A DNA stretch of 64,000 nt from an uncultured Candidatus Saccharibacteria bacterium (GTDB lineage Bacteria; Patescibacteriota; Minisyncoccia; Portnoybacterales; UBA2143), in assembly GCA_964594965.1 (NCBI GenBank), contig CAZQMX010000001.1, forward strand, positions 25,667-89,666, given 5' to 3'. Below the pieces are notes generated by a model. It was not told the DNA's origin. It searched no databases and worked only from the letters and a program-made list of their open reading frames with translations. Below are positions 4,760 to 61,043 of this stretch, in pieces. Numbering within the stretch: the stretch's first letter is position 1; each line of letters opens with the position of its first letter. Position numbers and translations under genes: made by a program.

Positions 4760-6381
4760 TAAGAAATATGACTAATAAAAAGATAATTGTAATTGCCAGT
4801 ATCATCATCATTATTATCGGAGGATACTTTGCTATTCGAGGAATTCTTAACAGAGGAACAACCTATTCAACGGTTGCCGTTGAAAGGAGCAATGTTGAAG
4901 AAAATGTTTCTGTCACCGGAACAGTCATTTCCGCCAAAAAAATTGATTTGGAATTTGAAAAAGCCGGTAAAATTAGAAGTATTAATGTCAGAGTTAATGA
5001 CAAGGTTTCTGTTGGACAAACTTTGGTTAGGTTAGATACCTCAGAATTGGGCGCCCAGCTTTTATCCTACCAGGCAGCCTTGGAAGTTGCCCAGGCTAAA
5101 TTATCCAAGGCCTTGGCCGGAACAAGAGAAGAGGATGTCCAGATTTACCGGACAGCGGTTGAAAAAGCCCAGGTTGATGTGACTAATAAGGAGAGGGCTT
5201 TGGCTGATGCCCAGGCCGATGCCGACAATGACTTGGAAGCCGCTTATGAAGACGCCCTGGATTCAGTTAGAACTTCATATACCAAGGCTGACCAAGCCCT
5301 TTTGATTACTTACACTAATATGAGGGATAGCTATTTCGGCGGAAGCAGTGCCCTTGACGTTGGCGTCAAAGACAAAGAAAATGGCGCTAAGCAGGATTTG
5401 GCAGTTGCCGATGCCTATATCGAAGCAGCCGAATTGGATTCAACAGAGAATAATATTGATACAGCCATTGAAAAAATGCAGCACGCTCTTTCGTCAATTA
5501 GGGATGCTTTGGCTTATCTTCGCTCAGCAATGGATGATCCAAGCGAATCTTCAGTTTCTTCTGTTGATAAAACCAGCGTTGATACTGAAAGAACAAACAT
5601 TGACACTGAAATTGTCAGTGTTACCTCAGCCAAGCAGGCAATTTCTTCGACAAAAATCACTAATCAGACCAATATTAATACTGCTCAGTCTAATCTTGAT
5701 ACAGCTAAAACCAGCCTTAAGAAAGCCCAGGATGAATTAGCTTCGGAAGAAGCCGCTCCTCGCCAGGAAGATATTGATTTAGCCCAGGCAGAAGTTAAAC
5801 AAGCCCAAGCCAATGTTTTGGAAGCCCAGGCAAAAATAGCTAAATCAATTTTAAGAGCGCCGGTCGCCGGAACAATTACCGCCATAGAAAAAGAAGTTGG
5901 CGAAACGGTCCAAAGCAATACTTTAGTTGTCTCAATGATTAGCCAGGGTAATTTCCAGATTGAAGCCAATGTTTCTGAAACAGAGATTGCCAAGGTTAAA
6001 TTAGACGACCAGGTTGAAATGACCCTTGATGCTCTTGGTCCGGATGAAAAGTTTTTCGGAAAGATAATTAAGATTGACCCGGCTGAAACGGTTGTCTCGG
6101 GCGTTATCTATTACCAGGTTAACTCTGTTTTTGACGCTGAAGACGAAAGAATCAGACCGGGCATGACGGTTAATCTTGATATTAGAACGGATAAAAAAGA
6201 AAATGTTTTAGCAATTCCGTTTTTCATTGTCAGAGAAAAAAATGGAGAGAGATATGTTGAAATTCTAAAGGACGGCCAGAAAGAAAAACAGGATATTAAG
6301 ACCGGATTAGAAGGAGAAACCATGATAGAAGTTATTGAGGGACTTAAAGAGGGCGACGAGGTAATTGTTTCAGAGGAATAA
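4756..6381 (+). CDS. HlyD/MacA-family periplasmic adaptor with an unusually long coiled-coil hairpin
   Basis: N-terminal TM, split biotin-lipoyl half-motifs (VTGTV..., ILRAPVAGTI), a long A/D/S-rich coiled coil and a C-terminal beta-barrel. Overlaps the start of the downstream ABC genes. Confidence 0.65.
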   Translation: MIRNMTNKKIIVIASIIIIIIGGYFAIRGILNRGTTYSTVAVERSNVEENVSVTGTVISAKKIDLEFEKAGKIRSINVRVNDKVSVGQTLVRLDTSELGAQLLSYQAALEVAQAKLSKALAGTREEDVQIYRTAVEKAQVDVTNKERALADAQADADNDLEAAYEDALDSVRTSYTKADQALLITYTNMRDSYFGGSSALDVGVKDKENGAKQDLAVADAYIEAAELDSTENNIDTAIEKMQHALSSIRDALAYLRSAMDDPSESSVSSVDKTSVDTERTNIDTEIVSVTSAKQAISSTKITNQTNINTAQSNLDTAKTSLKKAQDELASEEAAPRQEDIDLAQAEVKQAQANVLEAQAKIAKSILRAPVAGTITAIEKEVGETVQSNTLVVSMISQGNFQIEANVSETEIAKVKLDDQVEMTLDALGPDEKFFGKIIKIDPAETVVSGVIYYQVNSVFDAEDERIRPGMTVNLDIRTDKKENVLAIPFFIVREKNGERYVEILKDGQKEKQDIKTGLEGETMIEVIEGLKEGDEVIVSEE

Positions 6382-6390
6382 AGACTTCTT

Positions 6391-7107
6391 ATGCTGATTA
6401 AAATTGAAAATCTTAATAAGGATTATGTTAATGAGGAATTGGTTACCCCGGCTTTACGCGGGGTTTCTTTTGATGTTGAAAAAGGCGAGTTTGCTGCGGT
6501 CATGGGTTCCTCCGGCTCGGGTAAATCAACCCTGATGCATATTATTGGTTTCTTAGATAAGTCAACTTCAGGAAGCTACTTTTTTGAAGAAGAAGACACC
6601 AGCCAATTCGACGACAACAAATTAGCAGAAATCAGGAATGAAAAAATTGGTTTTGTCTTCCAATTCTATAATCTCCTTCCCCGGACTTCTGTTCTGGATA
6701 ATGTCCTTTTACCAACCATTTATACGCCCAATCTTGATAAATCAAGAGCAGAAGTCCTGGCTAAAAAACTTTTAGAGGAAGTTGGCCTGAGTCACCGGAT
6801 AGGTCACCGGCCCAATCAATTATCCGGCGGCGAACAGCAAAGAGTTGCCATTGTCCGGGCTTTAATAAACAAGCCCCGTCTTATTCTGGCTGATGAGCCA
6901 ACTGGAAATCTTGACAGCAAATCCGGCCAGGAAGTTATTGAAATTCTTCAAAAGCTTAATCAGGAGGGCAATACTATTCTGATGGTTACTCATGAAAAGG
7001 AGGTCGCTGAATGCGCCCGCCGGATTATTGAATTTAAGGACGGTTCGGTTATCTCCGATAGAAAAGTTGAGAACCAACGCCGGGCAGAAGATGGAATAGT
7101 CAAGTAA
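6391..7107 (+). CDS. ABC transporter ATP-binding protein, MacB/LolD family
   Basis: Walker [13 protein letters not shown] signature LSGGEQQRV, Walker [12 protein letters not shown]. Confidence 0.8.
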
Positions 7108-7115
7108 CTATTCCT

Positions 7116-7168
7116 CCAAATCTTTGATTTGGTTAGGAACAGTTATCCTGAGCGAAGTCGAAGGATCT
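7116..7168 (+). repeat. CCAAATCTTTGATTTGG hairpin plus the left arm of the MITE-like element (copy A, truncated)
   Basis: GTTATCCTGAGCGAAGTCGAAGGATCT matches the left arm of the other five copies. The right arm is absent. Confidence 0.5.
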
Positions 7169-7176
7169 TATCCAAT

Positions 7177-8409
7177 ATGTATTTAGTTAATACATTAAAA
7201 CTAGCTTTAAGAAATTTGACCTTGCAGAGGAGCAGGTCTTTTTTGACTATGCTCGGAATCATTATTGGTGTTGCTGCCGTTATTTCAATCATTGCCGTTG
7301 GAGCCAGCGCCCAGGATTTGCTTTTAGCCCAGGTTAGGGCAATGGGAAGTAATTTAATTGGTATTCTTCCCGGAGCGAGCGATGAATCCGGACCGCCGGC
7401 CAGTGTCCTTGGTATTGAAGTCACAACTTTGAAATATGAGGATGCTTTGGCTTTGGAAAAAATTCCTCAGATTGAAGCCGTTGCTGCCTATTCCAAGGGA
7501 CGGGGGACAATGAGTTTTTTTAATAAATCAAATGATTTTGACTATACCGGGGTAACGCCAAGTTATCTTAATGTTGAAGATACTGAACTGGAATCAGGCC
7601 GTTTTTTCAGACAAGAAGAAGTTGATAGTTTGGCCCGGGTGGTTGTTTTAGGCAGCAAAGTCAGAGAAGAACTTTTTGGCCAGAACAACCCAATAGATGA
7701 GAGAATTAAGATTAATCAGATTAGTTTTAAAGTTATTGGAGTAATGGAGGAAAGAGGTTCGGCCGCTTTTCAAAATCAGGATGAACAGGTCTTTATTCCA
7801 TTAAAAACAGCCCAGAAAATTATGCTAGGAGTAGACCACCTGGCTTTTATCCGGGCTAAAGTAGACCAGACCAAAAATATTGATCTGGTCATTCCTCAAA
7901 TTAAAAACATTCTTCGCTTCCGCCATAATATTAAAGACCCAACCAAGGATGATTTCTCTGTTAGGAGTACTGATCAGGCCCTTGACCTGCTTGGTTCAAT
8001 CACCCAGGCCTTAAAAGTATTTCTAGGCATGGTTGCCGCTATTTCGTTAATTGTCGGCGGTATCGGCATTATGAATATTATGTTTGTTGCTGTTAATGAA
8101 AGAACCAAGGAAATTGGTCTTCGAAAAGCAATTGGCGCCAAACGAAGAGATATTTTAATCCAGTTTTTAATTGAAAGCGCGACCATGACTTTAATCGGCG
8201 GAATCATCGGTATTATTGTTGGTATTATCATTTCTTTCCTAATTTTCATTGGTGTTAAATATTTTGGCTACGACTGGCGATTTATTGTCACTCCTTTTTC
8301 CATTTTTGTTTCAACTTTTATGGCTATTGCGGTCGGCCTAATTTTTGGCCTTTGGCCAGCTAACCGGGCTTCAAAGTTAAATCCAATTGAGGCGCTTAGG
8401 TATGAGTAA
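7177..8409 (+). CDS. ABC transporter permease, MacB/FtsX-like
   Basis: MacB-type periplasmic domain followed by an FtsX 4-TM domain (GGIGIMNIM). Start moved to the ATG after repeat copy A. The track start is a TTG that translates the repeat. Confidence 0.7.
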   Translation: MYLVNTLKLALRNLTLQRSRSFLTMLGIIIGVAAVISIIAVGASAQDLLLAQVRAMGSNLIGILPGASDESGPPASVLGIEVTTLKYEDALALEKIPQIEAVAAYSKGRGTMSFFNKSNDFDYTGVTPSYLNVEDTELESGRFFRQEEVDSLARVVVLGSKVREELFGQNNPIDERIKINQISFKVIGVMEERGSAAFQNQDEQVFIPLKTAQKIMLGVDHLAFIRAKVDQTKNIDLVIPQIKNILRFRHNIKDPTKDDFSVRSTDQALDLLGSITQALKVFLGMVAAISLIVGGIGIMNIMFVAVNERTKEIGLRKAIGAKRRDILIQFLIESATMTLIGGIIGIIVGIIISFLIFIGVKYFGYDWRFIVTPFSIFVSTFMAIAVGLIFGLWPANRASKLNPIEALRYE

Positions 8410-8529
8410 TGCCTCAGATACATTTTTTGCCGGAGGACACCATATTTGCCTGCTGACAAATTGGCTCGTTCTCGCGCCGTCGCGCTTCGAAGGCCTCCTG
8501 CAAAAAAGTATCTTTCGGCTTTTTAAAAG

Positions 8530-14703: not shown

Positions 14704-15695
14704 ATTAATCCCATTTTCTGTTTGACTTTCTTTAATGTCTCTCCGGAAATCTTTTGAGCATCCTTGGCACCCTGGTCAAGGATTTTTTTAACCTGAGTCG
14801 GGTCTAGTTCCTTCATTTTTTTCTGAATGGGCTCTAATCCTTTAATAACAAGATCGGCCAGGTCTTTTTTGAATTGAGCATAACCCTTGCCCTTATATTT
14901 CTTTTCAATTCCTTCATAAGACAAACCAGAAAAACAATGATAAATTGTCATTAAATTGGCCACAGCAGGCTTTTTGGGAATATATTCAATTTCTTTTCCC
15001 GAATCTGTCACAGCTCTTTTAATCTTATTCTTAATTTCATCGGGAGAATCAGTCATAAACAGACAGCCCTGGGGAACGCTTTTAGACATCTTTTCAGAGG
15101 GGTCTGCCAAGGACATTATTCTTGCTCCGGCCCCGTAAACGAGGGCCTCGGGTATAATAAAAGTTTTTCCAAATTGATTGTTAAATTTTCGGGCAACTAT
15201 TCTGGTTAGTTCAATGTGTTGTTTTTGATCTTCGCCAACCGGAACAGCGTTGGTATTGTAAAGAAGGATATCCGAAGCCATCAAAACAGGATAACCGAAA
15301 AGCCCCATATTAATATTTTGCTTAAACTGGGCGGCTTTTTCTTTAAATTGAGTCATCCTTTCTAATTCAGAAACAGGAGTTATTGTATTTAAAAGCCAGG
15401 TTAGTTCGGTATGCTCCGGGACGTGGGATTGAACAAAAAGAGTGCATTTTTTAGGGTCTAGACCTGCGGCCAGATAAGTAGTAGCTAGGTCAAGAATATT
15501 TTTTTGCATTCCTTGAACGCTTTCAGGATTAGTTAAGGCGTGTAAATCCACAACACAAAAAATACAATCGTATTGGGACTGTAGTTCTACCCAGTTTTTA
15601 ATTGCACCCAAATAGTTGCCGATATGAATAGAACCAGTTGGCTGGATGCCGCTAAAAATTCTTCTTCGACTTTGCTCAGAATAAATTTTTTTCAT
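14700..15695 (-). CDS. trpS: tryptophan--tRNA ligase
   Basis: HIGH-type HIGN and KMSKS motifs, 331 aa. Confidence 0.85.
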   Translation of the reverse strand: MKKIYSEQSRRRIFSGIQPTGSIHIGNYLGAIKNWVELQSQYDCIFCVVDLHALTNPESVQGMQKNILDLATTYLAAGLDPKKCTLFVQSHVPEHTELTWLLNTITPVSELERMTQFKEKAAQFKQNINMGLFGYPVLMASDILLYNTNAVPVGEDQKQHIELTRIVARKFNNQFGKTFIIPEALVYGAGARIMSLADPSEKMSKSVPQGCLFMTDSPDEIKNKIKRAVTDSGKEIEYIPKKPAVANLMTIYHCFSGLSYEGIEKKYKGKGYAQFKKDLADLVIKGLEPIQKKMKELDPTQVKKILDQGAKDAQKISGETLKKVKQKMGLI

Positions 15696-15708: not shown

Positions 15709-15778
15709 GTCATTCTGAACGAAACGAAGTGGAGTGAAGAATCTTTTTTACAGATCCTTCGCTAACGCTCAGGATGAC
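15709..15778 (-). repeat. MITE-like palindromic element, copy B (minus orientation)
   Basis: GTCATTCTGAAC...GAAGAATCT / AGATCCTTCGCT...CTCAGGATGAC. Sits 14 nt upstream of the trpS start. Confidence 0.7.
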
Positions 15779-15787
15779 AAAATAAGT

Positions 15788-16516
15788 TTATTTTTTATCT
15801 AATTTTTTAAAAGTTTTGATAATAGGTGAGAGATCACCGTCAATAATTTTATCCAAATTATGCCAGGATTTCTTAATCCGATGGTCAGTAATCCTGTTTT
15901 GCGGAAAATTGTATGTTCTGATTTTCTCTGCCCGCATGGCCATACCAATCTGTCCCTTTCTTTCATCGCCCCGTAGGGCCAGATCTTCTTCTCTTTTTTT
16001 AGCCAAAAGGCGAGCCCGCAGAACATTCATTGCTCTTTCCTTGTTTTGTTGTTGGGATCTTTCTTCCTGACAAGTAACCATTATTCCGGTCGGAGTATGA
16101 ATAATTCTAACAGCTGATTCAGTCTTATTAACATGCTGGCCACCCGGCCCAGAAGCTCTTAAAACATCGATCCTAACATCCTTTGGATTAATCTTTATTT
16201 CAGTTTCAGTTGCTTCTTCTAAAACAGCGACCGAAGCAGTTGAAGTATGGACTCGGCCTGATTTCTCTGTAGTTGGAACGCGCTGGACCCGATGAACTCC
16301 GCCTTCGTATTTTAACTCTTGATAAGCATTTTCTCCCTTTATTTCAAAAACAATTTCCTTGTAGCCGTTTAATTCAGATTGACTACTATTAATTAAAAGA
16401 GTTTTCCAGTTTTCCTTTTCAGCAAAGCGGGAATACATTCTAAAGAGGTCGCCAGCGAAAATGGCTGCTTCTTGTCCGCCGGCACCAGCTCTGATTTCAA
16501 TAATTACACCCTTCAT
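15788..16516 (-). CDS. prfA: peptide chain release factor 1, lacking the N-terminal domain 1
   Basis: GGQ motif and an RF1-type PxT tripeptide (PTT). 242 aa, beginning at the domain-2 sequence [11 protein letters not shown]. The upstream sequence encodes L31, not the missing domain. Confidence 0.7.
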
Positions 16517-16749
16517 TTTTTCTTTTTAGTTTTTAAGCCAAGTTTCTTTTCTCTTTTAGCCAATCTTTGCCTGAATTTTTCAACCTGGCCGGTTTCAATA
16601 ATTTTTTCCTTGCCGGTATAAAATGGATGGCATTGAGAACAGATTTCAACTTCCATATTTTCCTGAGTTGAACCAATTTCAAAGACTGCGCCGCAAGCGC
16701 ATTTAATCTTGGTGTCAGGATAATATTTCGGGTGGATATCTTTTTTCAT
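16513..16749 (-). CDS. rpmE: ribosomal protein L31
   Basis: [10 protein letters not shown]...CACG...[10 protein letters not shown]. The track ORF is trimmed to this internal Met. Confidence 0.8.
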
Positions 16750-17029
16750 TAGGGATATCATAACAAACATTGATTTATTTTTCAAGATAGTATAGGATAA
16801 TGTTGTAAATAGGGGAGGGAGAAAGGCCTTTTCAAAAAAGGCGTTTTTTAAGAGTTTATGCCCGGTAGTAGAATTTCGATAATCGCCAAGAGCGATAAAA
16901 TACCGGAGCATAGTGTTAAAGCTAAGATTATTAATTTATTTCGATAGTAATCATAGAAATTCTATTATTAAAATCGAAATTTCACTACCGGGTATGGCAG
17001 AGAAGAAGACAAAAAAAACAAAGAAAAAA

Positions 17030-18165: not shown

Positions 18166-18848
18166 GTATTTTATCCTACATCTTCATCGGATTAGTTGGG
18201 TCAAGTTTAATTGGTCTGGGAATTGTTGTTTACCGCAAGATTCCTGTTTTAGCTAATCTCTCAGAAGAGGAGATGATGATTTTAATCAAGAAAAGGGGAT
18301 TGGTTGAAAAAACCAGAGAGGTTAATTACAAACAGCATTGGCTTAATTTAATTGTCACTCTCCAGAAGTTTTTAATGCGGGTCAGAATTATCTTCCTTAA
18401 AACCGAGAGTATCCTCGGAAAATGGATCGGCGGATTAAGAGGTAGTTCAAAAACAATGACCCAAAAATCAAAAGAATGGATTAGACAGAGGGAAATAAGG
18501 AGAAAAGAAAGACACAGCAAGTTAAATGGGAAAATAAATGGGAAGGAGCCGGAAGAATTTATTCTCCAGATAAACAAAGAAAAAACAAAACCCAAACCGG
18601 AAAAAGAAGAAGACGAAATTACTCTTGATGAATTAAATAAACCAATCAAAGAAGAACAGCAATGGATTGACCTGATTGTTGAGAATCCAAAAAATATTAC
18701 TGCTTACAAATTCCTGGGATTGTTTTACCATAAACAGCATAACTATTCTGATGCCAAAGCATCATTGGAAATGGCAGTCAAACTTGGCTCCAAAGACAAA
18801 AAAGTCAAAGATATCCTCAAGGAATTAAAAGAAATGGAAATAGAGTAG
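18162..18848 (+). CDS. hypothetical protein with an N-terminal TM helix and a TPR-like C-terminus
   Basis: ORF only. Confidence 0.3.
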   Translation: MSILSYIFIGLVGSSLIGLGIVVYRKIPVLANLSEEEMMILIKKRGLVEKTREVNYKQHWLNLIVTLQKFLMRVRIIFLKTESILGKWIGGLRGSSKTMTQKSKEWIRQREIRRKERHSKLNGKINGKEPEEFILQINKEKTKPKPEKEEDEITLDELNKPIKEEQQWIDLIVENPKNITAYKFLGLFYHKQHNYSDAKASLEMAVKLGSKDKKVKDILKELKEMEIE

Positions 18849-18966
18849 GCCAGTGTAGTCCCGATTTTGTTCAAATCTCTGATTTGAATACAAAACCGCG
18901 GATCCTCGAAAATTATAAAATCAAAAGATTTTTAATTTTCGGGACTCAATGAGGTAACATATTCTA

Positions 18967-19201: not shown

Positions 19202-19267
19202 CGCGTTTTTTATCCAAAACTTGTTTTGGGTATAAAAAAGAGCGTCCCGTCGGATGACGGGACTCAC

Positions 19268-27064: not shown

Positions 27065-27559
27065 ATGGCAGAAGAAAACAAGAAGGAAGAAACTCCTAAA
27101 GAGGAGGCTCCTAAAAAAGAAGAGGCGCCAACACCTGAGAAAAAAGAAAAGGAAGTTCCCGCCCCGTCGGCGGACAAGGAGGTGCCAAAGAAATTCAAAG
27201 ACTTAGTCAAACAAATTGAAGAACTAAGTGTTTTGGAATTAGCCGAATTGGTTAAAGTTCTAGAGGATAAGTTTGGTGTCAGTGTCCCGCAGTACAGCGG
27301 GATTGCTCCGGCTGCCGGAGGCGCTCCAGCTGAAGGCGGAGAAGAAAAAAGCATCTTTGACATCGAGCTCAAAAGCTCTGGTGACCAGAAAATCAGTGTT
27401 ATTAAGGTGGTTAAAGAAATTACAGACCAAGGATTAAAAGAAGCTAAAGAAATTGTTGATAGCGCTCCGAAAGTTATCAAACAGGGCGTTAAAAAAGAAG
27501 AAGCCGAAGAAATCAAAAAGAAACTAGAAGAAGCCGGCGCAACAGTAGAATTAAAATAA
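27065..27559 (+). CDS. rplL: ribosomal protein L7/L12 with an E/K/P-rich N-terminal extension
   Basis: C-terminal domain KFGVSVP...[56 protein letters not shown]. Confidence 0.8.
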
Positions 27560-27567
27560 CTATTTAT

Positions 27568-27660
27568 CCAAATCTTGATTTGGTAGTAAATAGTTATCCT
27601 GAGGAGCAAAGCGACGAAGGATCTATAACTAACAGATTCTTCGCTAACGCTCAGAATGAC
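27568..27660 (+). repeat. CCAAATCTTGATTTGG hairpin plus MITE-like element, copy C
   Basis: GTTATCCTGAGGAGCAAAGCGACGAAGGATCT / AGATTCTTCGCTAACGCTCAGAATGAC. Between the rplL stop and the ATG at 27680. Confidence 0.7.
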
Positions 27661-28890: not shown

Positions 28891-28988
28891 GGGTATGAAG
28901 TGAATGATTGTGGATAAAAGTGGGGATAAGTATATAAAATTGTGGATAACTGACTATTTTGTCTTAATCTTTGATTCAGATACAAAAT

Positions 28989-29055
28989 ATCATCCTGAGG
29001 AGCGAAGCGATCGAAGGATCTGTACAAACAGATTCTTCGCTTTGCTCAGAATGAC
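28989..29055 (+). repeat. MITE-like palindromic element, copy D
   Basis: ATCATCCTGAGGAGCGAAGCGATCGAAGGATCT / AGATTCTTCGCTTTGCTCAGAATGAC. 38 nt upstream of mraZ, inside the operon leader. Confidence 0.7.
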
Positions 29056-36300: not shown

Positions 36301-38976
36301 ATGGCGAAAGCATGGCATAGTTTTTCAATTGAGCATATTTTTCAAGAGGTTAATTCGGGGCTTGACGGATTGAGCCAAAAAGAATCTGAAAGAAGATTAG
36401 AAAAGTTTGGCTTAAATGAACTTCCTGAGAAAAAGCCAGTTTCTAAATTGGAACTACTTTTTGAACAGATAAAAAGTCCTCTGGTCTATATTCTTCTTAT
36501 TGCCGGAGTTGTCACTTTGGTTTTGGGAGAGAACACTGATACAATTGTCATTTTCGGCGCCGTCATCTTAAACGCCCTAGTCGGTTATTTTCAGGAAGTT
36601 AAGGCTAATCAATCACTCGATAAATTAAGAAAAGTTCTAAAAACAAAGGCGATTGCTATTAGAGACGGAGATGAAAAAGAGATTCCTCAGGGAAAACTTG
36701 TTCCTGGGGATGTTATTTTTTTAAGAGCAGGCAATAAGGTTCCGGCTGACGGAAGAGTAATTGAAAATTGCGATTTAAGAATTAACGAGGCTCCTTTGAC
36801 CGGCGAATGGCTGTCAGCGGCTAAAACAATCAAGATTTTCCCGGAGAAAACCTCTTTAGCCGACAGGGATAATATGGTCTATATGGGAACAGTTGTTGAA
36901 AGCGGCTGGGGTAAAGCGGTTGTGGTCAGTACCGGGCTTGGCGCTCAGATCGGTCGAGTGGCAGAAGTAATCAAAGAGACCAAAGAAAAAAAGACGCCTT
37001 ATCAGAGGAAATTATCCCATTTCAGCAAAATTGTTGGTTTAGTTATTCTTGCTATTGCTTCAGCTATCTTTATAGAAGGATTAGTAACCAAGCATAATTT
37101 TGTTGAAATGTTTACTACTTCTGTTGCGGTTGCGGTTGCGGCAATTCCAGAGGGATTACCCGTTGCCATGACCGTCATTTTGGCCCTGGGCATGCAAAGA
37201 ATTCTGAAGAAAAGGGGATTGGTCAGAAAACTGGCTTCGGCCGAAACCCTAGGCAGTACTTCCGTTATTTTAACCGATAAGACCGGAACGCTAACCGAAG
37301 CTAAAATGGAAGTTGCCGGTGTTTATACCGGGACAAAGGAACTTTTAGGCGATCAATTAAATCATAGATTTGACGGAGAAAGCAATCATTCTCATGTCCG
37401 GCTTTTGAAAATTGCCATGATTTGCAACGAGGCCTTTATTGAAAACCTTGAAGAACCAACTGAGAAATGGGTTATCCGGGGAAGGCCAACCGAGAAAGCC
37501 CTGCTTTTAGCGGGAATCCAGTTTGGCTTGTCTAAAAAAGAAATCTTAAAAAGGGAAGCCTTAATTGACCGTTTTCTTTTTGATCCAATTTACAAATACG
37601 CGGCTTGCCTTCATAGGTTAGACGATGAAAATAATGTTCTATACGCCGTTGGCTCGCCAGAGGTTATCCTTTCCTCTTCAACCTATTTGGATAGCGATGG
37701 CCAGGAAAAAGAGTTACTTCTATCTGATTTTGATAAAATTAAGAAGAAAATAGATAATTTGACTAATAGCGGTCTAAGGGTTGTTGCAATTGCCTACAAA
37801 AAAACAAGGGAAAAAGAGATAAAGAAAGAAGGGGAGAATAAACTGGGAGACATGGTTTTTGTTGGTTTTCTTTCTCTTCATGACCCGATTAGAAAGGGGA
37901 CTAAAGAAGTAATGGATGTCTGTCGTCGGGCAGGAATGAAGCCGATTATTGTTACCGGCGATCATAGATTAACAGCCAAGAAGGTAGCGGAGAAACTTGG
38001 CTTTCCGGTTGAAGATAAAAACATCCTCGAAGGAAAAGAACTTGAACAAATGAACGAGAAGGAATTTGAAAGAAGAATTAGAGAGATTCATGTCTATGCT
38101 CGGGTTGAACCAAAACAGAAATTAAGAATTGTTCAGGCCTGGCAGAAAAGGGGAGAGGTTGTTGCTATGACCGGTGATGGCATCAATGACGCCCCGGCTC
38201 TTTCCCAGGCGGATATTGGCGTCGCTCTCGGCTCTGGCACCGATGTTGCCAAAGAGGTCTCCGATATGGTTCTTTTAACAGATAACTTTCATGTTATTGT
38301 TGCTGCTATTGAAGAAGGCAGGGCAATTATTGACAATATTAGGAAGGTCATTACTTATCTATTGTCCGATAGTTTTGCCGAAGTCGTATTGGTCGGAGTT
38401 AGTTTGCTTTTTGGTTTGCCCTTGCCGATTCTGGCCGCCCAGATTTTATGGGTTAATTTGATTGAGGATGGACCAATGAGCATTGCTCTGGCTTTTGAAA
38501 AAAAGGAGAAAGACACCATGAGGCAGAAACCAAGGAATTACAGTTTATTCCTCTTGACCAATGAAATGAAAGTCCTGATATTTATTATCGGCTTTCTGAC
38601 GGATGTCTTTCTGCTTGGTCTCTTTTTCTGGCTTTTGAAATATTCTAATTACGATATTGTTCATATTAGGTCGGTTATCTTTGCCGGTTTAACAATTGAT
38701 TCGCTTTTCTACATCTTCTCCTGTAAGAGTTTAAGAAAGAATATCTGGCAGATTAATCCATTTTCAAATAAGTTTCTAATTTTATCCTGGGTTTTTGGCA
38801 TCTTTATGCTCTCAATTGCCATCTATGTTCCGTTTTTCCAAAATCTTTTAAAGACAGTCCCACTAAACCTATTTGACTGGGGCTTGGTTTTGGCTCTCGG
38901 AGCAATTAATATATTATTAATTGAAGTAACTAAATACTTTTTTATCTCTCGGAAAATTGAAAAGAAAAAAATATGA
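36301..38976 (+). CDS. cation-transporting P-type ATPase (Ca2+/PMCA-SERCA-like)
   Basis: DKTGTLT phosphorylation site and TGDGINDAPAL hinge. 891 aa with 10 TM helices. Confidence 0.85.
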   Translation: MAKAWHSFSIEHIFQEVNSGLDGLSQKESERRLEKFGLNELPEKKPVSKLELLFEQIKSPLVYILLIAGVVTLVLGENTDTIVIFGAVILNALVGYFQEVKANQSLDKLRKVLKTKAIAIRDGDEKEIPQGKLVPGDVIFLRAGNKVPADGRVIENCDLRINEAPLTGEWLSAAKTIKIFPEKTSLADRDNMVYMGTVVESGWGKAVVVSTGLGAQIGRVAEVIKETKEKKTPYQRKLSHFSKIVGLVILAIASAIFIEGLVTKHNFVEMFTTSVAVAVAAIPEGLPVAMTVILALGMQRILKKRGLVRKLASAETLGSTSVILTDKTGTLTEAKMEVAGVYTGTKELLGDQLNHRFDGESNHSHVRLLKIAMICNEAFIENLEEPTEKWVIRGRPTEKALLLAGIQFGLSKKEILKREALIDRFLFDPIYKYAACLHRLDDENNVLYAVGSPEVILSSSTYLDSDGQEKELLLSDFDKIKKKIDNLTNSGLRVVAIAYKKTREKEIKKEGENKLGDMVFVGFLSLHDPIRKGTKEVMDVCRRAGMKPIIVTGDHRLTAKKVAEKLGFPVEDKNILEGKELEQMNEKEFERRIREIHVYARVEPKQKLRIVQAWQKRGEVVAMTGDGINDAPALSQADIGVALGSGTDVAKEVSDMVLLTDNFHVIVAAIEEGRAIIDNIRKVITYLLSDSFAEVVLVGVSLLFGLPLPILAAQILWVNLIEDGPMSIALAFEKKEKDTMRQKPRNYSLFLLTNEMKVLIFIIGFLTDVFLLGLFFWLLKYSNYDIVHIRSVIFAGLTIDSLFYIFSCKSLRKNIWQINPFSNKFLILSWVFGIFMLSIAIYVPFFQNLLKTVPLNLFDWGLVLALGAINILLIEVTKYFFISRKIEKKKI

Positions 38977-41336: not shown

Positions 41337-41906
41337 GGTGTTTTCGTCAATGTATTCCAAATCTGAGCCGGTTGATAGGCCTCGCGCTAACCGGCTCGTT
41401 TTAATTTCCAGCCCCCCAAGCAATCGTTCAATATACAAAGCGGTGGTGTCGCCCTCGGTCGTCGGGCTAAAAGCGAATATAATTTCCTTTATCCCTGGTT
41501 GGGATTTTTTAATTCTAGCAATTAATTGATTAATTTTCAGGCTTTCCGGACCAATGCCATTTCCCGGAGAAATTAATCCGCCTAAAACATGATAAAGCCC
41601 GTGATATTGTTTGGTTTTTTCAATTGGAATAATATTCAATAGATTTTCAACCAAGCAAAGAATTGATTTATCTCTTTTTCCATCAAGACAAATTGGACAG
41701 AATTTCTTGCTTTTTTCAGTCAGGTTATAGCATTGAGGACAGAGATTGATTTCGGTTTTAAGGTTTTTAATAGCAAAAGAAAAATTATCCAATTCTTTTT
41801 GATTCTGATTAAGCAAATGAAAAACCATCCGGGTGGCGGATCTTGGCCCGATTTCCGGTAGTTTAGATAATTCATTAATAAGTTTTTGAACTGATTTGGG
41901 AAACAT
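41307..41906 (-). CDS. recR: recombination protein RecR
   Basis: HhH N-terminus, a C4 zinc finger (CPQC...CPIC) and a Toprim domain. Confidence 0.85.
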   Translation of the reverse strand: MFPKSVQKLINELSKLPEIGPRSATRMVFHLLNQNQKELDNFSFAIKNLKTEINLCPQCYNLTEKSKKFCPICLDGKRDKSILCLVENLLNIIPIEKTKQYHGLYHVLGGLISPGNGIGPESLKINQLIARIKKSQPGIKEIIFAFSPTTEGDTTALYIERLLGGLEIKTSRLARGLSTGSDLEYIDENTLSSALLGRK

Positions 41907-41929
41907 GCCAATTTTTTCTAAATTTTAAT

Positions 41930-41967
41930 TTAGATAAAAAATTGAGCATCCCGCAGTATTGCGGGAT
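41930..41967 (-). terminator. hairpin ATCCCGCAGTATTGCGGGAT with T-tracts on both sides
   Basis: Perfect 8-bp stem lying between the dnaB stop and the recR start. Confidence 0.45.
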
Positions 41968-46321: not shown

Positions 46322-46759
46322 ATGCCCATTAAATGGCAACCATTTAAAGATTTAAATAGACGACCTCATCTTCCTGATGTTTTTGAAGAAGATGACCGGA
46401 TGCCTTTTTCTCCACATTTCCGACAGGAAGAACCGACAATTGACATTTATCAGGATAGAAATAATCTCTACATTGAACTTCCTTTAATTGGCATTAAAGC
46501 CAAGGATGTTAGTATTTCTATAGAGAATAGTGTTTTAATTATTGAAGGGAAAATACAGGAAAAGAAAGAAGCCAAAGAAAAGGACTATATCAGAAAAGAA
46601 ATCAGAAAAGGTTCTTTCCATCGGGCAATCAGATTGCCGGTTGAAGTTAAAGGGAACCAGGCCAGCGCTGAAACATCTGAAGGCATGCTTAAAATCACTC
46701 TTCCCAAAGCAGTTAAAGGGGCTCCTAAAGCTAACCGAGTCCCAATTAAGATTAAGTGA
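46322..46759 (+). CDS. Hsp20/alpha-crystallin small heat-shock protein
   Basis: Alpha-crystallin domain (IDIYQDRNNLYIELPLIG...GSFHRAIRLP). Confidence 0.8.
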   Translation: MPIKWQPFKDLNRRPHLPDVFEEDDRMPFSPHFRQEEPTIDIYQDRNNLYIELPLIGIKAKDVSISIENSVLIIEGKIQEKKEAKEKDYIRKEIRKGSFHRAIRLPVEVKGNQASAETSEGMLKITLPKAVKGAPKANRVPIKIK

Positions 46760-46767
46760 GTATTTTT

Positions 46768-46865
46768 CTAAATCTCTGATTTAGTTTAAAATAGTCATCC
46801 TGAGGGCGAAGCCCGAAGGATCTATGGCAAAGAAAAGATAGATTCTTCGCTTCACTCAGAATGAC
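46768..46865 (+). repeat. CTAAATCTCTGATTTAG hairpin plus MITE-like element, copy E
   Basis: GTCATCCTGAGGGCGAAGCCCGAAGGATCT / AGATTCTTCGCTTCACTCAGAATGAC, ending 9 nt before the dnaK ATG. Confidence 0.7.
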
Positions 46866-59570: not shown

Positions 59571-61043
59571 ATGAAAAAAAATCAAGAAACACAAGTTAGG
59601 TTTGCGCCGAGTCCGACCGGGCTGTTTAGTATAGGCAATGCTCGGACGGCTCTTTTTAACTATTTATTCGCCAAACAGAACAAAGGTAAATTTATTCTTC
59701 GAATAGAAGATACTGATGAAGACCGCTCTGAAAAAAAATATGAGAAAGATATCATAGAGAATCTGAAATGGCTTGGATTAAATTGGGACGAAGGACCAAT
59801 AAAACAGAGTGAAAGAACAGAAATTTATCAGAAAGAAATTAAAAAACTCCTTGAACAAGGAGATGCTTTTTTCTGCGACCACACCAAAGAAGAATTAAAC
59901 GAAGAGAAAGAAGAGCAAAGTAAGAGAAAAGAGGCTCCCCGGCATATTTGCAATCGTCCTAATTATGTCATTCTGAAGGAGTCGAAGACGACTGAAGAAT
60001 CTGTTAACAGATCCTTCGCTGACGCTCAGGATGACAGAGGTAAAAAGGATACTAGAAACAAGAAGGGAATTATTCGATTCCGGACGCCCAAAGGAAAAAT
60101 TACTTTCAATGATTTAATTCGGGGGAAAGTTGAAATTAACGGAGAGCTATTAGGGGATTTCAGCATTGCCAAGGATGAAAAAACTCCTTTATATAATTTT
60201 AGCGCGGTTGTTGACGACGCCGAAATGAAAATATCTCATGTTATTAGAGGAGAAGACCATCTTCCCAATACGCCTAAACAAATCCTCCTATACAAAGCCC
60301 TTAAATTAGATGTGCCGGAATTTGCTCATTTGCCTTTAATTTTAGGTCCAGATAGGTCTAAAATGAGCAAAAGGCATGGATCAACCTCTGTTGGTCAATA
60401 CAAAAAAGAAGGGTATTTACCAGAGGCGATAAATAACTTTTTAGCGCTTTTAGGCTGGAATCCAGGAACGGAAAAAGAAATATTTTCAATGAATGAATTA
60501 ATCAAGGAATTTTCTCTTGAAAGAGTTCATAAAGGCGGAGCAATTTTTAACATTGAACGATTGGATTGGATTAATGGACAATATATTCGGCAGATGGATT
60601 TAGATGAATTAACCAAGAAATGCCTTGAATATTTACCAAAAGAAACAGATTTTGAATACGCTAAGAAAATAGTTAAATTAGAACAGGAAAGAATTAAGAG
60701 ATTGTCGGAAATAGGGGAGTTAAGTCAATTCTTTTTTAAGGATAAACTAGATTATGATAAAGAACTCTTAATTTGGAAGAAAATGTCTTTAGAACAAGTT
60801 AAGGAAAAACTGGAATTAATACTCAAAGAATTAGAAAAAGTAGGGGATTTTGATCAAGAAAACCTGGAATATCTAATGATGCCTCTGGCGGAAAAACACG
60901 GCCGAGGCGAGCTTCTATGGCCTCTGAGAGTGGCTTTAACAGGCCAAAAGGCCTCACCCGGACCTTTTGAGATAATGGAGGTTTTGGGTAAGGAAAAGAC
61001 CTTAGAAAGAGTGGAAGAAGCAATAAAAAAACTCCAAGAATAG
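59571..61043 (+). CDS. gltX: glutamate--tRNA ligase carrying an in-frame 23-aa insertion
   Basis: PSPTG...IGNARTA and KMSKR motifs. Insertion VILKESKTTEESVNRSFADAQDD is encoded by MITE copy F. Confidence 0.85.
   Translation: MKKNQETQVRFAPSPTGLFSIGNARTALFNYLFAKQNKGKFILRIEDTDEDRSEKKYEKDIIENLKWLGLNWDEGPIKQSERTEIYQKEIKKLLEQGDAFFCDHTKEELNEEKEEQSKRKEAPRHICNRPNYVILKESKTTEESVNRSFADAQDDRGKKDTRNKKGIIRFRTPKGKITFNDLIRGKVEINGELLGDFSIAKDEKTPLYNFSAVVDDAEMKISHVIRGEDHLPNTPKQILLYKALKLDVPEFAHLPLILGPDRSKMSKRHGSTSVGQYKKEGYLPEAINNFLALLGWNPGTEKEIFSMNELIKEFSLERVHKGGAIFNIERLDWINGQYIRQMDLDELTKKCLEYLPKETDFEYAKKIVKLEQERIKRLSEIGELSQFFFKDKLDYDKELLIWKKMSLEQVKEKLELILKELEKVGDFDQENLEYLMMPLAEKHGRGELLWPLRVALTGQKASPGPFEIMEVLGKEKTLERVEEAIKKLQE
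59967..60035 (-). repeat. MITE-like palindromic element, copy F (minus orientation), 69 nt, in-frame inside gltX
   Basis: GTCATTCTGAAGGAGTCGAAGACGACTGAAGAATCT / AGATCCTTCGCTGACGCTCAGGATGAC. Starts on a gltX codon boundary and is 23 codons long. Confidence 0.7.

Follow-up and report, generated by a model that had tools for sequence, protein, structure and literature searches.

A dispersed repeat found in Patescibacteria and Clostridia is placed with nucleotide precision on the in-frame stop codons of the genes that precede it. With moderate confidence, the family is read here as a mobile composite of the REP/BIME kind, in which a 5' adaptor hairpin would clamp the stop codon and give rise to a structure in the mRNA behind it. 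Covariation among the copies supports a hairpin that acts as a folded single strand, presumably as RNA rather than as single-stranded DNA. We infer both an effect of the block on the mRNA or its translation and the manner in which the element spreads.

Hairpin 1 and the composite block in the window

The DNA analysed, hereafter the window, is a stretch of 64,000 nucleotides with a G+C content of 38%, and its nearest named relatives are Candidatus Portnoybacteria (Patescibacteria/CPR). A sequence-only reading had reported four short palindromes in it, all of which lie where it had placed them (Table 1), and its labels for the neighboring genes were also borne out (ABC_tran followed by MacB_PCD/FtsX; L7/L12; HSP20 followed by HSP70). 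With up to one mismatch allowed, the pattern YYAAATCTNTGATTTRR is matched 4 times in the window, where 0.18 matches would be expected, and none of 100 shuffles attained that count. The matches consist of three of the reported copies and an unrelated one inside an ORF at 37357-37373, since the copy at 27568 has a loop of 2 nt and so escapes a pattern of fixed length.

The palindrome forms no more than the inner stem of a bipartite hairpin of 40-42 nt, here called hairpin 1, that runs from the stop codon at its 5' start to the GTTA or GTCA of a MITE-like (REP-like) unit at its 3' end. In the minimum-energy folds of the three copies that are fused to such a unit, TAA is paired with TTA and TGA with TCA. 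The sequence-only reading had described a constant offset of 9 nt between stop codon and palindrome; the spacing is indeed constant in the three fused copies, with exactly 8 nt intervening, because the stop codon itself provides the first base pairs of hairpin 1. The G+C content of the hairpin is 22-32%, and TCCTGAG comes directly behind it. The stop codon of copy 1 terminates a 238-aa ABC ATPase.

Two further hairpins in the window depart from this arrangement. The lone copy has no intact REP unit behind it and leaves the stop codon, a TAG at 18846-18848, outside the stem, and its palindrome begins 21 nt past that stop; a second AT hairpin (18903-18944) and then tRNA-Thr follow. A degenerate fifth copy, absent from the sequence-only reading, is not at a gene end but upstream of mraZ and ahead of a REP-like doublet. 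A covariance model built from seven hairpins and used to search the window also scored weaker look-alikes, one in a tRNA spacer and one upstream of recR.

Table 1. Palindromes, hairpins and REP-like units in the window, with predicted fold energy (kcal/mol), its z-score and the covariance model score (bits)
Feature	Position	Strand	Sequence elements and context	Energy	z	Bits
Inner palindrome, copy 1	7116-7132		CCAAATCTTTGATTTGG; after the ABC ATPase gene of the MacB system			
Inner palindrome, copy 2	27568-27583		CCAAATCTTGATTTGG; after rplL			
Inner palindrome, copy 3	46768-46784		CTAAATCTCTGATTTAG; after hsp20; CT..AG variant			
Inner palindrome, lone copy	18870-18888		TTCAAATCTCTGATTTGAA; ahead of a tRNA cluster			
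Hairpin 1, copy 1	7105..7145	+	stop TAA 7105-7107 pairs with TTA 7143-7145; outer stem CTATTCCT/AGGAACAG, one A.C mismatch; outer arms including stop TAACTATTCCT / AGGAACAGTTA	-15.4	-4.8	64.3
Hairpin 1, copy 2	27557..27596	+	rplL stop TAA 27557-27559 pairs with TTA; outer stem TAACTATTTA/TAAATAGTTA	-13.1	-5.2	61.1
Hairpin 1, copy 3	46757..46797	+	hsp20 stop TGA 46757-46759 pairs with TCA of GTCA; outer arms TGAGTATTTT / AAAATAGTCA	-10.7	-4.1	60.6
Degenerate hairpin 1	28951..28992	+	TGACTATTTTGT CTTAATC TTT GATTCAG AT ACAAAATATCA	-7.6	-2.2	33.6
Lone hairpin-1-like copy	18862..18898	+	outer stem GATTTTGT/ACAAAAC, AT bulge	-9.5	-4.2	31.3
Unit A alone (half element)	7142..7168	+	GTTATCCTGAGCGAAGTCGAAGGATCT; MacB permease ATG at 7177			
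REP-like doublet	27593..27660	+	unit A 27593-27624 (ATCC..GGAT type); unit B' 27634-27660 (ATTC..GAAT type), ending GAATGAC			
REP-like doublet	46794..46865	+	unit A 46794-46823; unit B' 46840-46865; dnaK ATG 46875			
REP-like doublet	28989..29055	+	directly behind the degenerate hairpin			
REP-like doublet	15709..15795	-	after a release-factor gene; stop TAA (15790-15788) in a small AAAATAA-AC-TTATTTT hairpin, then GTCATCCTGAG			
REP-like doublet	59967..60035	-	in frame within the gltX ORF; same family, no hairpin 1			

Hairpin 1 is the first part of a composite block of 70-130 nt in which it is followed by unit A and usually by an inverted unit B'. Unit A consists of GTYA-TCCTGAG, a short GNRA-like hairpin and CGAAGGATCT, and its stem contains tandem G.A mismatches. 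Unit B' is inverted and belongs to a second type, with ATTC..GAAT in place of ATCC..GGAT; it runs through CTCAGAATGAC and terminates in GAATGAC, a few bases ahead of the next start codon. The block always lies on the sense strand of the upstream gene, whose stop codon is the T[AG]A with which the block opens, paired with the T[CT]A of the unit A tag. This tag is GTCA or GTTA (GCTTA or GCTCA in Firmicutes) and is stop-paired in the copies with hairpin 1; it is not an unpaired GTAG or CGTC. Counting those without an adjoining hairpin, the window holds 12 MITE-like/REP-like units. They are palindromic, present in many copies and mostly extragenic, downstream of ORFs; the Firmicutes and Patescibacteria loci described below contain many more. 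The site behind the release-factor gene could conceivably be a minimal variant that lacks the inner module. Both ends of the composite element carry TGAC, and neither terminal inverted repeats nor target duplications are evident at it.

Distribution, covariation and placement on stop codons

A scan of species-representative genomes, with a pattern that contained neither the stop codon nor the 5' arm, gave at least 113 loci, and the true family members among the matches listed fall into two groups, Patescibacteria and Clostridia. The first comprises five genomic loci (L023, L039, L064, L076 and L088) and three metagenomic ones (L132, L139 and L148), with the consensus TGAC-N-ATTT..YYAAATC-TTT-GATTTRR..AAAT-N-GTCA-TCCTGAG and a hairpin of 17-19 bp with a 2-3-nt bulge. 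The second comprises Sedimentibacter, Tissierellia and further MAGs; its consensus is T[AG]AGC-AGA-YRNC-CCAAATC-NNN-GATTTGG-T-GNYR-GTC-GCT[CT]A-TCCTGAGCGAAAGCGAAGGATC, and its hairpin has 5+4+7 bp, a 3x3 loop and a bulged U. Common to both groups are the T[AG]A triplet, the spacing of 8-9 nt, the inner stem sequence and unit A. The inner stem, CCAAATC/GATTTGG, is almost invariant across the phyla, whereas the outer stems of the two groups are unrelated. Some members of the Clostridia group form head-to-tail arrays with a period of 61-63 nt, and arrays of this period occur at L020, L026, L085 and L094. The copy between grdB and trxB, compared across five Sedimentibacter species, has kept hairpin 1 and both units with diverged spacers. 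A third composite was found in a spirochaete and in a Smithella MAG; its hairpin, AAATC..GATTT, is related and adjoins TTATCCTGAG, but it is not at stops.

A metagenome scan anchored on the 5' arm used a pattern that proved too loose, and about 110 of its 120 rows are chance matches in AT-rich coding DNA; the real members in it are L125/L200, L132, L139/L218, L148, L150 and L154/L173. Viral contigs gave four chance matches and no family member. Rfam at gathering thresholds returned 6 tRNAs only, and the composites at permissive thresholds gave nothing better than E = 0.5. A full-text literature search for the repeat sequences found unrelated primer matches only, and a search for work on REPs in Patescibacteria or Clostridia found nothing specific.

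The base pairs of hairpin 1 have been maintained through compensatory change. Among the matches listed, 23 Firmicutes copies have 99.6% of their cells paired, with 6 pairs changed on both sides and 23 double-change cells against 5.2 after shuffling, a level that 0 of 500 shuffles attained. The corresponding values for seven Patescibacteria copies are 97.6% of cells paired, 5 pairs changed on both sides and 13 double-change cells against 3.6. The middle 4-bp stem of the Firmicutes form occurs as TGAC/GTCA, CGAC/GTCG, CAAC/GTTG, TGTC/GACA and TGGC/GCCA, and the loop bases vary freely (TTT, TT, TCT, TAT, TTC, TAC, TGT, TCC). At the middle base of the stop codon the pairs are A-U in 18 and G-C in 5 Firmicutes copies, with no mismatch, and GC in 4, AU in 2 and GU in 1 of the Patescibacteria set. 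One-sided changes on the sense strand yield G.U or U.G eight times and A.C once. This wobble asymmetry favors folding of the sense strand, either as RNA or as top-strand DNA, over folding of the antisense strand, and it speaks against a site that is bound as a duplex; it is no proof of RNA folding, because G.T is the mildest mismatch in single-stranded DNA as well.

An association with stop codons, which the sequence-only reading had put forward for checking, holds well beyond the window. The genome scan matches listed and the window together provide 47 copies, of which 11 are internal to tandem arrays, leaving 36 that are independent. In 29 of these 36 the T[AG]A at the base of the hairpin is the in-frame stop of an ORF of 76-1137 codons, a position that only 3% of the T[AG]A triplets in these loci occupy (p ~1e-42). 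Among the remaining seven, the ORF runs to a TGA lying three codons inside the 5' arm in two and stops 5 nt upstream in one, and four copies have no ORF; three further metagenome copies are likewise at stops. REP-like units that stand behind a hairpin show a sharp peak at 38-40 nt from the stop (30 of 37), while those without hairpin 1 have no preferred distance, which makes the hairpin the part that fastens the repeat to the stop.

Both the stop and the codon before it are selective. TAG, which makes up 22-26% of background stops, is never used as the clamped stop, and TGA occurs in 8 of 11 Patescibacteria copies against a background of 15-21%. Immediately ahead of the stop, 10 of 11 Patescibacteria copies have AAR (Lys) and 18 of 18 Firmicutes copies have A[AG]N, where the background frequency is 22-34%. 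The C-termini look native: rplL ends in ..VELK, and Hsp20 in ..IKIK compared with ..IRIK or ..IKIK in relatives. Of the AARTRA sites in the window, 11 coincide with in-frame stops, 37 are intergenic and 191 lie within genes. A six-base AARTRA target from which genic insertions were purged would accordingly place about 23% of copies at stops in the window and about 3% in the Firmicutes loci, as opposed to the 80% or more observed. Nor were copies seen at variable distances inside 3' UTRs, though many Firmicutes copies lie between a stop and a canonical terminator. Something must sense the reading frame: either selection acting through translation termination or a targeting step of a new kind. 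To our knowledge, no REP, MITE or IS targeting mechanism senses reading frame.

Empty sites and competing explanations

Close relatives of the window organism lack the block. Four genomes found through DnaK (L241-L244; 93, 88, 88 and 84% identity) all have an hsp20 gene ending in TAA, a dnaK ATG 2-14 nt later and no element in between. At the macB junction of L245 and L246, whose permeases are 87-88% identical, TAA is followed by 10-14 nt and ATG. Across 85 kb of the hsp20-dnaK relatives there are 0 REP-like units and 0 canonical hairpin 1 copies, compared with the 12 units of the window. The boundaries of the empty sites are fuzzy, as their short spacers differ. Empty sites in such close relatives identify the block as a lineage-specific insertion rather than a conserved regulator, and by these comparisons it is gained or lost over a short evolutionary scale and is read as mobile now or recently. 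The module of stop, hairpin 1, element and start that the sequence-only reading had outlined thus stands in its order and spacing, which recur in other Patescibacteria and Clostridia, but not as a conserved intercistronic regulator. At the filled hsp20 site the stop is TGA with GTCA, where every empty site has TAA; at the filled macB site TAA was kept and the tag is GTTA. In either direction, therefore, the stop and its tag agree.

The element is also present at the same junctions in genomes further removed, between hsp20 and dnaK in L039 and at macB in L076. Ancient conservation was dropped as an explanation, given that closer relatives are empty, and a small repertoire of acceptable sites is the more likely one. 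Both hsp20-dnaK copies, in the window and in L039, do have the rare CT..AG inner variant. A target-site duplication of TA or TNA was rejected, because in TAA copies the triplet on the left is not found again on the right-hand side.

These observations also suit a selfish single-stranded-DNA transposon of the IS200/IS605 or REPIN type, the main alternative, which we consider doubtful. Its T[AG]A target, with or without the preceding AAR, would be read by the GTYA guide, hairpin 1 would be a linker joining target and guide without any RNA function, and stop codons would simply be tolerated targets. Presence/absence polymorphism, lineage-specific expansion, tandem arrays, half copies and decayed copies are what such an element would leave behind. 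The perfect TRA/TYA covariation without TAG, the change of the hsp20 stop from TAA in 4 of 4 empty sites to TGA with GTCA in the filled one, and the TGAC at both element ends agree with guided insertion. The ends of IS200/IS605 elements and of MITEs derived from them have a target or cleavage site that is read by an internal guide beside a subterminal hairpin, and IS608 recognises its TTAC target through such a base-pairing guide. The flanking T[AG]A[C/G] studied here similarly complements and covaries with GT[CT]A at the 5' foot of an imperfect hairpin, and the relatives have clean empty sites; the covariation is not decisive, because selection on an RNA stem would give the same pattern. Unlike in that family, the linker is a conserved hairpin, and target and guide are in one continuous helix. 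No tnpA or tnpB was seen, the tag is GTCA instead of GTAG or CGTC, and a restriction to in-frame stops is foreign to IS200/IS605 elements. The same difficulty arises from the counts above, as a six-base target blind to frame predicts about 23% of copies at stops and would also leave copies at variable distances in 3' UTRs. A tblastn search of about 1.3 Mb of loci with IS200 and IS608 TnpA sequences found no Y1 transposase, which is a weak test. No transposase domain was found among the 30 ORFs of the window or in the region covered by L001, and no transposase was found on inspection of the ORFs beside the tandem arrays.

If the stop is instead held for the sake of an RNA function, that function could be a switch tied to termination, which we regard as unlikely. 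GUCA would pair with the UGAC of the stop arm or, with a ribosome on the stop, with the same tetranucleotide closing B' ahead of the downstream start, and the exchange would tune termination, re-initiation or shunting across the folded insert and keep coupled cistrons coupled. In favor of such a device are the 8-9 nt between stop and inner hairpin in both phyla despite unrelated outer stems, a spacing that agrees with that of known recoding stimulators, and the strong enrichment of a Lys codon ahead of the stop. With stop and start only 2-14 nt apart in the empty sites, the genes were tightly coupled before insertion. When the first 15 nt are removed, folding predicts that GUCAU pairs with AUGAC of B' in 6 of 7 intercistronic copies. 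Against the switch, however, the region downstream where ribosomes would bind is predicted to become less accessible, not more, and in Firmicutes many copies are followed by a terminator and by no further cistron. A conserved in-frame extension is also missing: the frame of copy 2 is closed by TAG after 8 codons, and dnaK lies in a different frame from copy 3. A stimulator of recoding (SECIS, readthrough or frameshift) was rejected separately: the spacing of 8-9 nt fits, but both UAA and UGA occur, and for a readthrough fusion only copy 1 (macB) is in frame with the next ORF. Two ribozymes were likewise set aside, the hammerhead (CUGANGA..GAAA) on a core misfit by eye and no Rfam match, and loop A of the hairpin ribozyme (AGA/GUC, in the Firmicutes form) on a core misfit, no Rfam match and Patescibacteria copies without the internal loop.

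The sequence-only reading had also raised a protein-binding palindrome, and a double-stranded site for an IHF/HU-like protein or a repressor, comparable to the IHF-binding RIB/RIP of the E. coli BIME, is very improbable. The near-invariance of the inner stem across phyla would be expected of such a site, and the reverse strand of the TTT-loop copies, AATCAAAGATTTG, fits the IHF consensus WATCAANNNNTTR. Only the TTT-loop copies fit it, and the freely varying loop bases of the others break the consensus. A duplex site leaves unexplained why the variable outer stem changes by compensation, which is not required of a duplex, and it is equally at odds with wobble pairs on one strand only and with the fixed orientation relative to genes. 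The least credible proposal, an intrinsic terminator or, as the sequence-only reading had suggested, an attenuator between cistrons, is consistent with a stable hairpin directly after ORFs but hardly with an AT-rich stem that lacks a U-tract and has TCCTGAG next, with canonical terminators of GC-stem and U-tract elsewhere in the host and separately behind many Firmicutes copies, or with copies inside essential operons such as hsp20-dnaK.

Proposed mechanism, known systems and significance

Returning to the favored reading of a mobile composite with a stop-clamping adaptor hairpin, the block would be transcribed as the 3' tail of the upstream cistron and would fold in the mRNA. A terminating ribosome would melt the outer stem only, that is, the stop codon and 8-9 nt, which would bring the conserved inner hairpin to the mouth of the mRNA channel; the stem would re-form once the ribosome departs. 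An inner hairpin 8-9 nt past the A-site codon is approximately where recoding stimulators sit. The stack of hairpins may then serve as a barrier to 3' exonucleases, as a target for double-strand-specific cleavage or as both, and so separate the fates of the upstream and downstream cistrons in the manner of E. coli REP/BIME elements. Persistence would be limited to copies clamped exactly on a stop. Several points weigh against this reading. The near-invariant inner stem points to a protein partner, either a transposase or an RNA-binding protein. Any benefit of the element must be dispensable, because close relatives do without it, and an extra exonuclease barrier would be redundant in Firmicutes, where a canonical terminator hairpin often follows. 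A role as a stabiliser alone needs neither an exact start at the stop nor a preceding AAR or ARN codon.

RNase processing at hairpin 1, a further suggestion of the sequence-only reading, is plausible on the predicted fold. The geometry of an RNase III site is present, with about two turns of double-stranded RNA and a bulge or internal loop between cistrons. In E. coli and phage T7, REPs or sites such as rplL-rpoB block exonucleases or are RNase III targets, and intercistronic RNase III sites are found in T7 and at E. coli rplL-rpoB and rpsO-pnp. Like hairpin 1, those sites lie between r-protein and chaperone cistrons and have a two-part stem, about 17-20 bp long, that a bulge or internal loop interrupts; cleavage at hairpin 1 would likewise make the upstream message end in a 3' hairpin. 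They differ in being single-locus, inherited by descent and free of an embedded stop, whereas the element described here is a dispersed repeat.

The nearest known kind for the family is the REP/BIME/REPIN class of Proteobacteria. The likeness extends to short imperfect palindromes in many copies with occasional tandem arrays, to two unit types in alternating orientation (here ATCC..GGAT and ATTC..GAAT), and to positions downstream of ORFs or between co-directional genes, where the units are co-transcribed, or occasionally within genes. In both, the termini of the element can supply a stop codon. REPs are mostly downstream of ORFs, their GTAG termini often supply a TAG stop, and the units have an unpaired GTAG or CGTC tag at one end (PMC3733652). 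The present family departs from the class in its tag, GTCA or GTTA, so that a definition by GTAG or CGTC does not cover it, and in its hosts, Patescibacteria and Clostridia; no RAYT, the Y1 transposase that accompanies REPs, was identified in the loci searched. Use of the in-frame stop, occasional in REPs, is the rule here, in about 80-90% of copies, and an extra adaptor hairpin pairs the stop with the tag. What takes the family beyond the REP class is thus the adaptor hairpin, the covarying pair of stop and anti-stop, the near-obligate in-frame position and the occurrence in two distant phyla.

Two other systems also bring a folded repeat up to a stop codon. According to work by Liang, Rudd and Deutscher in 2015, REPs no more than 15 nt from a stop reportedly lower translation through ribosome stalling and tmRNA. 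The common element is a repeat hairpin so near the stop that the terminating ribosome must handle it, but in the present family the distance is zero, the AT-rich stem is weaker and the stop itself is paired. Integron attC sites resemble hairpin 1 as folded imperfect palindromes that start at or over a stop (TAAC...GTTA in two window copies). The majority form found here, TGAC..GTCATCC, nevertheless lacks the GTT of the RYYYAAC / GTTRRRY core, and the neighbors are housekeeping genes (rplL, hsp20/dnaK, macB, rpsO, greA and pheT) with no cassette array or integrase.

For annotation, the repeats create false ORF starts, as in the 426-aa MacB permease call, alter stop codons (from TAA to TGA in hsp20) and can sit in frame within genes (gltX). 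Dispersed palindromic repeats are usually seen as loosely placed passengers of 3' ends; this family is nucleotide-exact on stops and spans ultra-small Patescibacteria and cultivable Clostridia. Tentatively, it may represent one of two things: the first transposable repeat to home to an in-frame (Lys-)UAA or UGA by means of an "anti-stop" TYA guide on an adaptor hairpin, or an RNA device common to both phyla, whose stop clamp is opened by the ribosome at termination so that the intercistronic RNA is reset. Either way, the reading frame would be sensed. Should insertion itself be directed to stops, mobile DNA would have a targeting principle of a new kind, perhaps even a programmable one. Should selection preserve only the stop-clamped copies, the element would be a reusable RNA module coupling translation termination with the structure of the mRNA in compact operons.

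REP-like units within coding sequence

A doublet of the repeat family, comprising REP-like unit A and the inverted unit B', lies within the glutamyl-tRNA synthetase gene. The reading frame is left unbroken and gains roughly 25 residues, and the ORF still matches both the tRNA-synt_1c and anticodon domains. This in-frame intragenic insertion is reminiscent of the Rickettsia palindromic elements. The coordinates of this doublet and of the other features are collected in the table. Among them is a third unit next to another doublet, the minus-strand one (15709-15795) behind the release-factor gene; it falls within the first codons of a class I (W/Y) tRNA synthetase ORF.

The release-factor ORF comprises only 242 aa. 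Since it matches only positions 100-194 of the PCRF profile together with the RF-1 domain, the N-terminal part is absent. The ORF immediately upstream (16513-16911) was ruled out as the missing N-terminus, as it encodes ribosomal protein L31.

Features within the window and at loci (L-numbers) of other genomes
Feature	Location	Strand	Remarks
Release-factor ORF	15788-16516	-	242 aa
Third REP-like unit, TTATTCTGAGCAAAGTCGAAGAAGAAT	15650-15695	-	First codons of class I (W/Y) tRNA synthetase ORF, which follows the doublet at 15709-15795
REP-like doublet	59967-60035	- (orientation)	In frame inside glutamyl-tRNA synthetase ORF 59571-61043
AT-rich bipartite hairpins other than hairpin 1	18903-18944; 19207-19238; 41906-41948		
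Palindrome TTAAATCATAGATTTGA	37357-37373		Matches search pattern; within P-type ATPase ORF
Head-to-tail arrays	L020 3276-3663; L026 22-339; L085; L094; L040; L106		

Hairpins resembling hairpin 1

Hairpin 1, the bipartite hairpin with the upstream gene's stop codon at its base, shares its architecture of an outer AT stem, a small bulge and an inner stem with the other AT-rich hairpins of the window. These hairpins, with inner stems such as CCAAAAC/GTTTTGG or CTAAAT/ATTTAG, are found in tRNA spacers and immediately 5' of the recR start. The recR-upstream hairpin is kept in a relative (L243, 5153-5195) at a locus lacking the repeat family. The palindrome within the P-type ATPase gene has neither an outer stem nor a repeat unit alongside and is therefore probably a chance match to the inner-palindrome pattern.

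Arrays and composites in other bacteria

In Tissierellia and Sedimentibacter genomes, hairpin 1 and unit A together form head-to-tail arrays with a period of 61-63 nt; gaps in the assemblies break them up. The stop codon is carried by the leading unit of an array alone, and no transposase was seen adjoining the arrays. The "86-codon" ORF located 5' of the Sedimentibacter copies (L034, L036, L040, L072, L106) opens right after an in-frame TGA, and trxB comes next in L034, L036 and L072. Because its GTCTRCG stretch can be read as a UxxCxxC motif, this ORF may be the C-terminal part of a GrdB-type selenoprotein of glycine reductase; if so, the TGA would be a selenocysteine codon.

Another composite repeat, GTCATTTCGAA..TGAGAAATC-TAA-GATTTCTCA..TTATCCTGAG..GAAGGGTTCGAAATGAC, occurs in a Spirochaetae MAG (L029, L038, L048, L103) and in Smithella (L074). 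Like the repeat family, it has an AAATC..GATTT hairpin and a CCTGAG..GAAGG unit; unlike the family, it is not positioned at stop codons.

Stop codons and repeats at the macB junctions

In the window, the TAA stop of the MacB ATPase and the ATG of the permease share a frame (7105-7179), with 72 nt running through the repeat and no intervening stop. Readthrough of this stop would join ATPase and permease in one protein. Gene callers open a 426-aa permease ORF at a TTG within hairpin 1; the homologue P0128 is also called at 426 aa, but the junction in its locus (L247) holds a different, GC-rich repeat. In this relative, both of the corresponding macB junctions (L247 4901-5050 and 6279-6360) are taken up by a GC-rich family, which begins directly 3' of the TAG stops. 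In the window, the spacer between the two permease genes (8413-8515) is filled by an inverted repeat that is long and imperfect, AGATACATTTTTTGCCGGAGG ... CCTCCTGCAAAAAAGTATCT (-39 kcal/mol, z -3.3).

The repeat family is absent from the relative L246, yet there too a MacB stop, that of the first permease, sits within a bipartite hairpin, here a different one of 50 nt (6159-6208), UAAAGAACUG..CUAAAUUCC-GUUA-GGAAUUUAG..CAGUUCUUUA (-23.4 kcal/mol, z -7.4), followed by a second long hairpin. Since the L246 stop is embedded in a different hairpin, hairpins inserted into these genomes may embed stop codons more generally.
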